A DNA stretch of 64,000 nt. Origin: Escherichia coli (GTDB taxonomy: Bacteria > Pseudomonadota > Gammaproteobacteria > Enterobacterales > Enterobacteriaceae). Shown piece by piece: positions 32,218 through 37,041 of this stretch. Location: NCBI RefSeq assembly GCF_024502345.1, contig NZ_JALDNN010000001.1; one strand, 5' to 3'. The stretch's first letter is position 1; each line of letters opens with the position of its first letter. Both the position numbers and the translations under genes were made by a program. Under the pieces are notes generated by a model. That model did no database searches. It worked only from the letters and a program-made list of their open reading frames with translations, and was not told the origin of the DNA.

Positions 32218-32838
32218 ATGAGGTATATAGTTGCCTTAACGGGAGGCATTGGCAGTGGCAAGAGTACCGTTGCCAATGCGTTTGCTGATCTCGGAATTAA
32301 CGTCATTGATGCCGATATTATTGCGCGTCAGGTGGTTGAACCAGGCGCACCTGCGCTACATGCCATTGCTGATCACTTTGGCGCTAACATGATTGCTGCT
32401 GATGGAACATTGCAGCGCCGGGCCTTGCGCGAGCGGATCTTCGCCAACCCGGAAGAGAAAAACTGGCTTAACGCCCTGCTGCATCCGCTGATTCAGCAAG
32501 AGACGCAACACCAGATCCAGCAAGCAACTTCCCCCTATGTACTGTGGGTTGTGCCATTGCTGGTAGAAAACTCACTGTATAAAAAAGCGAATCGAGTGCT
32601 GGTGGTGGATGTCAGCCCAGAAACGCAACTTAAGCGCACCATGCAGCGCGATGATGTAACTCGCGAGCATGTCGAACAAATCCTTGCTGCTCAGGCAACG
32701 CGCGAAGCCCGCCTTGCCGTGGCAGATGACGTCATTGATAATAACGGCGCACCGGATGCTATCGCATCGGATGTTGCCCGCCTGCACGCACACTATTTGC
32801 AGCTTGCGTCGCAGTTTGTCTCACAGGAAAAACCGTAA
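32218..32838 (+). CDS. coaE: Dephospho-CoA kinase
   Basis: 206-aa ORF with P-loop GGIGSGKST. Confidence 0.92.
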
Positions 32839-33581
32839 TGCAGACCCAGGTCCTTTTTGAACATCCACTAAATGAAAAAATGCGTACATGGCTGCGCATT
32901 GAGTTTTTGATTCAGCAACTCACCGTTAATTTACCCATCGTTGACCACGCTGGCGCGCTGCATTTCTTCCGTAATGTCAGTGAATTACTGGATGTTTTCG
33001 AGCGCGGCGAAGTCCGCACTGAGCTGTTGAAAGAACTTGACCGGCAGCAACGTAAACTCCAGACCTGGATTGGCGTGCCTGGCGTGGACCAGAGCCGTAT
33101 TGAAGCATTAATTCAGCAGTTAAAAGCGGCGGGGAGCGTATTAATCTCCGCGCCGCGTATCGGGCAATTTCTACGTGAAGATCGTTTGATTGCTCTGGTG
33201 CGTCAGCGACTGAGCATCCCAGGCGGCTGTTGCAGCTTTGATTTACCAACATTGCACATTTGGCTGCATCTACCCCAGGCGCAGCGCGACAGCCAGGTAG
33301 AAACCTGGATTGCCAGCCTGAACCCGCTCACCCAGGCACTTACCATGGTGCTGGATTTAATTCGCCAGTCGGCCCCCTTCCGTAAACAAACCAGCCTGAA
33401 TGGTTTTTATCAGGATAACGGTGGCGATGCCGACTTGCTGCGCCTGAATCTGTCGCTCGATTCACAGCTTTATCCGCAAATTTCCGGACATAAGAGCCGT
33501 TTTGCCATTCGTTTTATGCCGCTGGACACTGAAAACGGACAGGTACCGGAACGTCTGGATTTCGAACTGGCCTGTTGCTAA
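32838..33581 (+). CDS. zapD: Cell division protein ZapD
   Basis: 247-aa ORF sharing stop/start nucleotide with coaE. Confidence 0.9.
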
Positions 33582-33590
33582 GGAGTAAAA

Positions 33591-33788
33591 ATGTCAGAAA
33601 CTATTACGGTGAATTGCCCAACCTGCGGGAAAACGGTGGTGTGGGGTGAAATCAGCCCGTTTCGGCCATTTTGCTCCAAACGTTGTCAGCTGATCGACCT
33701 CGGAGAATGGGCTGCTGAAGAAAAACGAATCCCCAGCAGTGGCGATCTTTCCGAAAGCGATGACTGGAGCGAAGAACCAAAGCAGTGA
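33591..33788 (+). CDS. yacG: DNA gyrase inhibitor YacG (zinc finger)
   Basis: 65-aa ORF with CPTCGK ... CSKRC zinc-binding cysteines. Confidence 0.88.
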
Positions 33789-33877
33789 CATTTGTCTGAT
33801 GCCGCACGTAGGCCTGATAAGACGCGGACAGCGTCGCATCAGGCATCGTGTGCAAATGTTGGATGCGGCATAAACGC
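33789..33877. repeat. REP/BIME-type repetitive extragenic palindrome between yacG and mutT
   Basis: GCCTGATGCGACGCTG...CGCGTCTTATCAGGCCTAC-type imperfect palindromes typical of enterobacterial REP. Confidence 0.6.
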
Positions 33878-34276
33878 CTATCCGACATACACACGCTTAA
33901 GCTTCGCAATTACCGGTTCATTGGCTGGCGGAAAATCATCGGCATTAAGACCGACTAGCGACATCCACTCACCGGGTTGCCCTTCTTTACCCCACGGCTC
34001 CCCTTCCCAGCTTTCGACCAGCCAGAACCACAGAGTTATATGCCTGTCCGGGAATTCATATTCCAGTTTTTCAAATAGCGAAAAATGTTGTGGGGTAATC
34101 CCGACTTCTTCCTGAAGTTCACGCACCACCGCCTGTTCCGGCGTTTCACCCATTTCAATTTTACCGCCGGGAAACTCCAGTTTATTCGCCATGTGCGCAT
34201 CTGCTGCGCGACGCGTTATAAAGATTTCATTTTTCTCGTTGCGAATAATACCTACCGCAATTTGCAGCTTTTTCAT
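33878..34276 (-). CDS. mutT: 8-oxo-dGTP diphosphatase MutT (Nudix)
   Basis: 132-aa ORF with Nudix box GGKIEMGETPEQAVVRELQEEVG. Confidence 0.92.
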   Translation of the reverse strand: MKKLQIAVGIIRNEKNEIFITRRAADAHMANKLEFPGGKIEMGETPEQAVVRELQEEVGITPQHFSLFEKLEYEFPDRHITLWFWLVESWEGEPWGKEGQPGEWMSLVGLNADDFPPANEPVIAKLKRVYVG

Positions 34277-34335
34277 TGTCTTAAACCTATAAAAAAGGCG
34301 CAGAATCCTGCGCCTTTTACTTCAACAGTTAGCTT

Positions 34336-37041
34336 TTATTGCAGGCGGCCATGGCACTGCTTGTATTTTTTACCAGAACCGCACGGGCAAGGATCGTTAC
34401 GTCCTACTTTGCGCTCACCGGTTTGCGCCGCCAGTGCAGCTGCGGCTGCAGAGTCGTCATCCTGATGGCTAAGCTGCTGCATTTGCGCTAAACGCTCGGC
34501 TTCCATACGACGCTGTTGTTCCAGCTCCTCAACCTCTTCAGGCATACGTACCTGAACTTTGCTCAGCGTACTGATAACTTCATATTTCAACGACTCCAGC
34601 ATCGCTGCAAACATGGAGAACGATTCACGTTTGTATTCCTGCTTCGGATCTTTCTGTGCATAGCCACGCAGGTGGATACCCTGACGCAGATAGTCCATCG
34701 CTGCCAGGTGCTCTTTCCACAGGGAGTCAAGCGTTTGCAGCATGACGCCTTTCTCGAAGTGACGCATCATCTCAGCACCAACCACTTCTTCTTTACGCTG
34801 ATACACTTCGATGGACTGCGCCAGAATGCGCTCACGCAGCGTCTCTTCATGCAGTTCTGGTTCTTTATCCAGCCACTCGGCAATTGGCAAATCGAGGTCG
34901 AAATCGTTCTTCAGACGTTCCTGCAGCCCCGGAATATCCCAAATTTCTTCCAGCGACTGTGGTGGAATGTAGGCATCAATGGTCGCTTTGAACACATCTT
35001 CACGAATGCTGTTAATGGTTTCGCTCACATCGCTAACATCCAGCAATTCGTTACGCTGGGAGTAAATGGCGCGACGCTGATCGTTAGCCACGTCATCATA
35101 TTCCAGCAGTTGCTTACGAATGTCGAAGTTACGGCTTTCAACTTTACGCTGGGCGTTAGCAATCGCTTTGGTCACCCACGGGTGTTCAATGGCTTCGCCT
35201 GGCTTCATACCCAGTTTACGCATCATGCCGGATACTCGGTCGGAAGCAAAAATACGCATCAGCGCATCTTCCATCGACAGGTAGAAACGGGAAGAACCAG
35301 CATCCCCCTGACGACCAGAACGACCGCGCAACTGGTTATCGATACGACGGGATTCGTGACGCTCGGTACCGATGATATGCAGGCCACCTGCTGCCAGTAC
35401 CGCATCGTGACGTACCTGCCAGTCGGCTTTAATTTTTTCAATTTGCTCTGCGGTCGGATTTTCCAGCGCGGCAACTTCTGCCTGCCAGCTACCACCGAGC
35501 ACAATATCTGTACCACGACCCGCCATGTTGGTCGCGATAGTCACCGCAGCCGGATAACCTGCCTGAGCAACAATCGCCGCTTCGTTGGCGTGGAATTTGG
35601 CGTTCAGGACATTGTGCTTAATACCGGCTTTGGTCAGTTCGTTTGACACCAGCTCCGATTTTTCGATGGAGATAGTACCCACCAGCACCGGCTGGCCTTT
35701 CGCAGTACGTTCTTTGATATCTTCAATGATCGCCTGAATTTTTTCCGCTTCAGTCATGTAGACCAGGTCCGGCAGATCTTTACGAATCATTGGACGGTTG
35801 GTCGGAACAACGACGGTATCCAGTTTGTAGATGGAGCTAAATTCGAAAGCTTCGGTATCAGCAGTACCAGTCATCCCCGCCAGTTTTTCATACAGACGGA
35901 AGTAGTTCTGGAAGGTGATCGAAGCCAGCGTTTGGTTTTCGTTCTGGATCTGCACACCTTCTTTCGCTTCCACAGCCTGGTGCAGACCATCGGACCAGCG
36001 ACGGCCCTGCATGGTACGACCGGTGTGTTCGTCAACGATGATAACTTCACCATCTTTAACGATGTAGTCGACGTCACGGGTAAACAGCGCATGAGCGCGC
36101 AGCGCCGCCGTTACGTGGTGCATCAGCATGATGTTGGCCGGAGAGTACAGAGACTCCCCTTCATCCATGATGCCTTCTTTAACCAGCAGTTCTTCAATCA
36201 GCACCAGACCACGTTCGGTCAGGTTCACCTGGCGAGATTTTTCATCCACCGAGAAGTGGCCTTCACCCTGGAAGGTTTCGGAGTCTTCTTTTTCCTGACG
36301 GATCAGGTGCGGAATAATTTTATTCACGCGTTTATACATTTCCGAGCTGTCTTCTGCCGGGCCGGAAATGATCAGCGGTGTACGCGCTTCATCGATCAGG
36401 ATGGAGTCCACTTCGTCCACCAGCGCATAGTGCAGTTTACGCTGTACACGTTCTTCAGGGCTGAACGCCATGTTGTCGCGCAGGTAGTCAAAGCCGTATT
36501 CGTTGTTCGTACCGTAAGTGATGTCAGCTGCGTAAGCTTCGCGCTTTGCCGGTGCTGGCATGCCCGGCAGGTTGATACCGACAGTCAGGCCAAGGAATTC
36601 AAACAGCGGACGGTTGTTTTCGGCGTCACGTTGCGCCAGGTAGTCGTTGACGGTAACTACATGCACGCCTTTACCGGTTAGTGCGTTCAGGTAAGCAGGC
36701 AGCGTTGCGGTCAGGGTTTTACCTTCACCGGTACGCATTTCGGCGATGCAGCGTTCGTTAAGAACCATACCGCCGAGTAACTGAACGTCGAAGTGACGCA
36801 TACCAAAGACGCGCTTACTTGCCTCACGTACCACGGCGAAAGCTTCCGGGATCAGATTTTCCAGCACTTCGCCTTTTTCCAGACGTGCACGAAACTCTGC
36901 GGTTTTCCCTTTCAGTTCTTCGTCGGAGAGTTTTTCCATCTCCGGTTCCATGGCATTGATGATGTTGACCACTTTGCGCATCCGGCGCAGGGTGCGATCG
37001 TTACGACTACCGAAAACTTTAGTTAATAATTTGATTAGCAT
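34336..37041 (-). CDS. secA: Preprotein translocase ATPase SecA
   Basis: 901-aa ORF; C-terminal zinc-binding [14 protein letters not shown]. Confidence 0.97.

Follow-up and report, generated by a model that had tools for sequence, protein, structure and literature searches.

The mutT gene of Escherichia coli ends in a repetitive extragenic palindrome (REP), and in the DNA studied here a base change in that REP, GTAT for GTAG, removes a stop codon and makes MutT three residues longer than in K-12. Two point substitutions in or next to the REP explain the whole difference between the two tails. It is very probable that REP sequence variation, with no new insertion and no change in copy number, remodelled the MutT tail, and the direction of change was presumably stop loss from a 129-residue ancestor. 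Throughout, the window denotes the whole stretch of DNA analysed (64,000 nucleotides).

The mutT Locus

The window carries coaE, zapD (32838-33581) and yacG (33591-33788) on the plus strand, followed by mutT (33878-34276) and secA (34336-37041) on the minus strand. The yacG reading frame, encoding a DNA gyrase inhibitor, is recognised by Pfam PF03884 (YacG, E = 1.6e-24), and the same gene is annotated yacG in matching E. coli genomes. It stops with TGA at 33786-33788 and is convergent with mutT, leaving an 89-nt spacer onto which both genes run.

The open reading frame, Pfam and alignment to known structures all identify mutT as an 8-oxo-dGTP diphosphatase gene, here of 132 codons. The Pfam NUDIX domain (PF00293) spans residues 5-125 (E = 3.1e-23), the Nudix box (GX5EX7REUXEEXGU) is present in the translation as GGKIEMGETPEQAVVRELQEEVGI, and residues 1-129 align to PDB 1MUT with 3 differences (E = 4.9e-85). 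The exact protein is E. coli WP_256632839.1, which was found on a single contig in a collection of 15 billion proteins. Lysine at position 15 (N15K; mutT codon 15, 34230-34232) is rare, occurring in none of the other E. coli alleles sampled. On the secA side of mutT, the Rfam family STnc40, a Salmonella sRNA, matches 34291-34360 on the minus strand (84 bits versus a gathering score of 45), crossing the 3' end of secA and the secA-mutT spacer.

Two Substitutions in the Tail

The window MutT ends ...KLKRVYVG, or over a longer stretch ...PVIAKLKRVYVG. A sequence-only reading of this DNA had set this 132-residue protein against a K-12 protein of 129 residues ending ...KLKRL, and the comparison was correct. 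The mutT gene of the K-12 derivative C600 is 390 nt long and encodes 129 residues ending ...AKLKRL; the K-12-type sequence is that of 23 PDB entries, including 1MUT and 3A6S, and a cluster look-up gives it the name MUTT_ECOLI. The K-12 protein is 98% identical to the window MutT, and alignment with K-12 mutT shows that the two C-termini differ.

Codon-by-codon comparison of eight alleles locates the difference. The 129-residue alleles read ...AAG CGT CTG TAG GTC GGA TAA GGC... and carry two in-frame stops nine bases apart, whereas the 132-residue alleles read ...AAG CGT GTG TAT GTC GGA TAA (or TAG). Between the O157:H7 junction (132 residues) and the B1-type junction (129 residues), the only changes on the mutT strand are the two substitutions that separate GTG TAT from CTG TAG. 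In the window, codons V129-Y130-V131-G132 occupy 33881-33892 on the minus strand, with Y130 (TAT, 33887-33889) standing where the 129-residue allele has its TAG stop. Both the extra codons, TAT GTC GGA, and the stop that follows them belong to the REP. The y-type REP covers 13 nt of the frame, comprising the stop (33878-33880), codons 130-132 and the first-numbered base of codon 129 (33890). The stop of the 132-residue allele (33878-33880, minus strand) derives from the REP segment GGATA(A)GG; it is TAA in O157:H7 but TAG in both the window and PapRG-04-4, as the result of a 1-nt deletion.

These observations explain the two tails. In the short allele, the TAG of the y REP GTAG serves as the mutT stop, and the TAA of the REP GGATAAGG, two codons downstream, stands in frame as a back-up. 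With GTAT for GTAG, the first stop is read as Tyr, after which the ribosome translates GTC GGA (Val-Gly) and terminates at the second REP stop (GGATAAGG). The linked first-base C-to-G change (CTG to GTG) accounts for L129V, and the end product is a 132-residue MutT ending ...RVYVG. The locus is a clear case of a REP that provides a gene with its stop, the TAG within GTAG, and also with a back-up stop in the same frame, so that stop loss can add no more than three residues.

REP and BIME Anatomy of the Spacer

The yacG-mutT REP pair is a well-known BIME. In the window, the spacer consists of one BIME unit, formed by a z2 REP and an inverse y REP whose GTAG ends point outward, together with a truncated REP remnant near yacG. 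The remnant (33793-33807, TGTCTGATGCCGCAC) resembles the GCCTGATGCGACGCTG end of a z REP and pairs as inverted repeat I2 with 33836-33845; other strains read tctgatgcgacgctg in its place. The z2-type REP follows directly on the plus strand (33808-33844, 37 nt, GTAGGCCTGATAAGACGCGGACAGCGTCGCATCAGGC), with an intact GTAG at 33808-33811. It agrees with the 37-nt z-type REP consensus at 37/37 positions, with 0 mismatches (100 shuffles gave 0 matches), contains inverted repeat I1 and forms a stable hairpin in folds of both strands. Its length and GTAG prefix agree with the z2 type as described in PMC8266576.

A 13-nt linker (33845-33857, ATCGTGTGCAAAT) separates the two REPs, which are inverted relative to each other. 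RNA folding predicts pairing of the linker and the first y-REP base with mutT codons 128-131. Beyond it lies a degenerate y-type REP (33858-33890, minus strand) that reads GTAT-GTCGGATAGGCGTTTATGCCGCATCCAAC on the mutT strand, its GTAG motif being mutated to GTAT at 33890-33887. By hand alignment, it differs from the consensus GCCGGATGCGGCGTGAACGCCTTATCCGGCCTAC (GTAG-GCCGGATAAGGCGTTCACGCCGCATCCGGC; quoted in PMC12306157) by 6 mismatches and a 1-nt deletion, an identity of ~79%. A strict y-REP consensus search of the whole window, allowing up to 3 mismatches, gave no match, since this copy, with its 6 mismatches and an indel, has diverged too far from the consensus. A fuzzy consensus scan did detect the tail of the y REP, which also lies within an Rfam naRNA4 match, and the assignment was made by alignment, including comparison with K-12, PapRG-04-4 and O157:H7.

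Structural predictions agree with this anatomy. Rfam naRNA4 (RF02564) matches 33811-33887 on the minus strand with 60.5 bits against a gathering score of 59.5 (E = 4.7e-10). The plus-strand RNA fold of the spacer has z = -5.65 relative to shuffled sequence, with predicted hairpins at 33812-33844 and 33847-33895, the latter being the extended hairpin on the mutT strand. The inverted repeats and folds reveal the imperfect palindromes of 20-50 nt with stem-loops expected of REPs, and the arrangement is that of a BIME, with two inverse REPs around a short linker in the window and tandem units in other strains. GTAG precedes the z2 copy but not the window y copy. Elsewhere, the 129-residue alleles and three outgroups have GTAG at the y REP, and two further outgroups show GTAA or TTAA instead. 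The element as a whole lies between two genes, but it is not strictly extragenic, since 13 nt of the y REP (33878-33890) are within the mutT frame; in the 129-residue allele the overlap is 3-4 nt. The spacer is the only REP-like locus in the 64-kb window.

The sequence-only reading had proposed a REP element at the mutT 3' end, and the perfect 37-nt z consensus, the naRNA4 match and the fold z score of -5.65 bear this out. Its boundaries need adjustment, however. The element was described as beginning right at the stop codon, but the y REP overlaps the stop and the last three codons, and the proposed end at 33900 lies about 10 nt past the end of the REP at 33890. A simple terminator scan of the BIME found no intrinsic terminator, and a literature search for mutT together with REP or yacG returned nothing specific to the yacG-mutT junction.

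The closest described relative of the unit is REP325, whose y-z2 BIME unit is the basis of naRNA4 (RF02564), a reported nucleoid-associated RNA. The window matches the full 77-position model on the mutT-sense strand, just over the gathering score. REP325 is a tandem array at another locus, whereas the window has a single unit.

BIME Units and MutT Length among Strains

The K-12 yacG-mutT BIME has the same convergent genes, REP remnant, z2 REP and linker, and its y REP is in the same position at mutT. It differs by an additional z-y unit and by a 36-nt spacer with an IHF-consensus-like ATCAATGAGTTA, both of which the window lacks. K-12 also keeps GTAG, so that its frame stops at codon 130 after 129 residues (...KRL), whereas the window has GTAT and 132 residues (...KRVYVG). 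The ATCAATGAGTTA motif lies in the 36-nt spacer between K-12-type BIME units (L001, 622-657) and conforms to the IHF consensus WATCAANNNNTTR; this putative IHF site is missing from the single-unit window.

O157:H7 and PapRG-04-4 are much closer to the window. Their MutT proteins (RefSeq WP_000736023.1 and WP_000736016.1) have the same RVYVG tail and their BIME has the same single unit; the proteins are 98-99% identical to that of the window, and the DNA reaches 99.3% identity over 741 bp. Relative to these two strains, the window has in addition N15K and three y-REP transitions (ttggatgcggcataaacgcc), the latter also being present in strains such as 13P477T.

Among the strains sampled, unit number ranges from 1 to 3, and each protein length occurs with differing unit numbers. 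A single unit accompanies 129 residues in L010 and L012 and 132 residues in the window, PapRG-04-4, O157:H7, L005 and L006. Two units accompany 129 residues in K-12 (L001) and 132 residues in L007, L013, L095 and L096. The only strain with three units (L004) has 129 residues, and three units with 132 residues were found in none of the strains sampled.

These combinations bear on a different origin for the tail, in which REP/BIME insertion or a change in copy number displaced the mutT 3' end. The K-12 and window spacers do differ by a 117-bp BIME unit, and the tail codons are REP sequence, as expected if an insertion had created them. However, REP units are fewer in the window than in K-12, single-unit strains with 129 residues and two-unit strains with 132 residues both exist, the y REP is already at the mutT stop in all Escherichia outgroups, and nothing beyond the two point substitutions separates the O157:H7 junction from the B1 junction. 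An origin by insertion is barely credible on these grounds, and copy number was rejected as the determinant because either protein length is found with various BIME unit counts. The sequence-only reading had suggested REP insertion or variation; the second of these stands, as two substitutions of which one is in GTAG, and the first does not, as K-12 has more units.

Frequency of the Two Alleles

The 132-residue MutT is a common natural allele, routine in RefSeq and already annotated, and is not peculiar to the window. A census with allele-specific 38-nt junction probes against 5,424-5,426 complete E. coli genomes, which counts junction matches and not individual translations, assigned 1,827 genomes to the K-12-type junction and 1,445 to the B1-type junction, both encoding 129 residues. 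The window/O157-type junction, encoding 132 residues, accounts for 710 genomes (499 complete genomes with an exact match and 211 with a near-exact one), and a B2-type junction with 132 residues and the tails VYVE or VYAG accounts for 937. A 30-nt probe that reaches every genome divided them into identity bands of 566, 803, 2,187 and 1,868. With the probes combined, ~61% of complete E. coli genomes are of the 129-residue type and ~39%, including O157:H7, of the 132-residue type, about 500 genomes being reached by the 30-nt probe only and their 132-residue call resting on 11 sampled non-129 junctions. All 11 of the non-129 junctions inspected encode 132 residues and are annotated as 399-nt genes.

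The longer frame could in principle be a sequencing or annotation artefact, a reading considered solely since the exact window MutT is rare and confined to one contig. Its probability is negligible. The junction recurs in the several hundred exact and near-exact matches just described, which are independent assemblies; RefSeq annotates a 399-nt mutT in every 132-type genome inspected; and the tail difference is a substitution with no homopolymer indel. The recurrence of the allele in independent complete assemblies was the ground for rejecting an artefact. K-12 is unrepresentative for the MutT C-terminus, and it would be wrong to flag such length differences as errors or truncations. For the window itself, the 132-residue allele is of little importance.

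Ancestry of the MutT Tail

Outgroups were taken from a scan of one genome per species, which yielded five non-coli Escherichia (E. albertii, E. whittamii and three others; E. fergusonii and Shigella lay outside this set). In that scan no E. coli representative with a near-identical MutT appeared, and the best match was E. albertii at 94%. All five non-coli Escherichia encode 129 residues; codon 130 is TAG or TAA and is followed at once by gtcggataagg, and in two of the five the CTG TAG haplotype is exactly that of the E. coli 129-residue alleles. Since every outgroup stops at codon 130, the short form is probably ancestral. One genome of the scan, SCPM-O-B-8794 (L019), is titled E. coli, but its MutT is only 88% identical, and its mutT groups closest to the genes of E. 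whittamii and Escherichia sp. E1V33, at a large distance from E. coli alleles. The title is probably wrong and the genome that of a cryptic clade.

Polarity within E. coli is less easily read. A mutT gene-body tree built to polarise the change showed tails shuffled among haplotypes and gave no polarity within the species. Distances over codons 1-128 show the two tail types interleaved among E. coli gene-body haplotypes; for example, O157:H7 (132 residues) and O103 (129 residues) differ at 2/384 gene-body positions, and the greatest divergence among the sampled E. coli mutT haplotypes is found in some of the 132-residue alleles. It follows that both tails are old and that recombination has shuffled them; the distribution of tails within E. 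coli requires either recombination or conversion of one REP by another.

It could be argued from the same data that 132 residues is the ancestral E. coli state and that the 129-residue form of K-12 and phylogroups A and B1 arose later by nonsense truncation, TAT to TAG, possibly through REP gene conversion that restored GTAG. The 132-residue tail occurs on those E. coli mutT haplotypes that diverge most among the ones sampled (L095, L096, and the variants VYVE and VYAG), O157:H7 belongs to phylogroup E and early-branching phylogroups tend to have the 132-residue form, and conversion from one REP to another would restore the GTAG consensus. This history is nevertheless rather unlikely given that the five outgroups all stop at codon 130, two of them with the exact CTG TAG haplotype. 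Retention of CTG TAG as an ancestral state shared with outgroups is simpler than regaining both bases, and points again to stop loss from a 129-residue ancestor.

The tail also varies beyond Escherichia. Across 80 enterobacterial genomes, MutT is conserved through ...FPPANEPVIxKL and then continues into unrelated tails, for a total of 129-135 residues, and palindromic repeats often begin at or over the mutT stop codon. Repeat-driven remodelling of the MutT tail is evidently recurrent and the tail little constrained, to judge from these alignments. Two Citrobacter genomes illustrate parallel evolution of both E. coli states. In L036 (from position 1579), the mutT stop is the TAG of GTAGGCCGGATAAGGCG, a REP's GTAG, and in L048 (from position 1579), the frame reads CAG GCC GGA TAA, a ...QAG (Gln-Ala-Gly) tail ending at a REP's TAA.

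Hairpin Strength and the Origin of the Substitutions

On the mutT strand, the predicted hairpin of the window, PapRG-04-4 and O157:H7 has a free energy of -22.9 to -30.7 kcal/mol, compared with -17 to -22 kcal/mol for the 129-residue alleles. Pairing of codons 128-131 with the inter-REP linker lengthens the predicted hairpin in 132-residue alleles. The other three 132-residue alleles folded (two B2 types and L013) range from -17.8 to -20.3 kcal/mol, within the range of the 129-residue alleles.

A stronger hairpin may have driven both substitutions, whether by template switching in the imperfect palindrome or by selection for a more stable REP hairpin, with the protein extension as a by-product. 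Both substitutions add base pairs between codons 128-131 and the linker, and in the B1 and O157 sequences, otherwise identical, the predicted energy goes from -22.0 to -27.8 kcal/mol. Of the 594 double substitutions possible in the 12-nt stretch, the change from CTG TAG to GTG TAT is the 4th most stabilising for the hairpin, although this ranking is post hoc. The two substitutions are also almost fully linked, with at most about 28 genomes that could be intermediates. On the other hand, a single template switch would have copied the intervening linker TTG as well, which is not seen and makes such a switch a low-probability event. Furthermore, in B2-type strains the linker has shifted from GTGTG to ATATG and nothing compensates for this, which means that DNA-level conservation does not extend to the outer stem. 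Taken together, a hairpin-driven origin appears improbable.

Possible Functional Consequences

The three extra residues are probably neutral, and the longer MutT equivalent to the shorter one; an effect on the enzyme is unlikely, as the tail is outside the NUDIX domain, which ends at about residue 125, and is variable across enterobacteria.

Consequences for the REP itself are a second possibility. In E. coli, a GTAG stands in front of y, z1 and z2 REPs alike, and the REP-associated transposase TnpA_REP tolerates no mutation of it (PMC8266576). By analogy, the base change that lengthens MutT would be expected also to disable the y REP as a substrate for recognition by this transposase.

A third possibility concerns translation. 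According to Liang, Rudd and Deutscher (2015), whose results PMC12306157 summarises, ribosomes stall and translation falls where a REP lies less than 16 nt from a stop codon, and both mutT alleles place a REP within this distance. The geometry is not quite the same, however. The REPs of Liang et al. lie 1-15 nt after the stop, whereas the mutT y-REP hairpin begins right after the stop in the 129-residue allele and upstream of it in the 132-residue allele, where the stop codon sits inside a hairpin arm, beyond the 1-15 nt arrangement. By analogy with those genes, the REP hairpin over the stop may reduce mutT translation. If these effects were combined, the REP at the mutT end would be a small evolutionary switch in which GTAG or GTAT together alters the tail, the hairpin strength, the amount of MutT through REP-dependent stalling and processing by TnpA_REP, but such a switch is highly doubtful. 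Were MutT dosage to differ between alleles, it could feed lineage differences in the A:T-to-C:G mutation rate.

Rearrangements at the mutT/REP Junction

Several strains show further changes at this spacer. The single unit of the window (33845-33877) resembles the crossover product of a two-unit array like that of 13P477T (L095, 219-419), combining the linker of the first 13P477T-like unit (catcGtgtgcaaatgt) with the y REP of the second (Tggatgcggcataaacgcc). Such a crossover would be a deletion by recombination inside the repeated linker.

In two genomes, the yacG-mutT BIME contains an insertion sequence. It is split in O103 strain RM8385 (L008, 1201-2578) by an element with an IS110-like IS621 transposase gene, IS621 being an element that targets REP sequences, and in FDAARGOS_944 (L009, 909-2559) an IS3-family element lies inside it. 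Finally, E. coli E1624 (L098, about 405-425), a 129-residue strain, has a 7-bp tandem duplication, CTACAGA, at the boundary between the mutT stop and the REP, which is a further sign that the mutT/REP junction is mutable.
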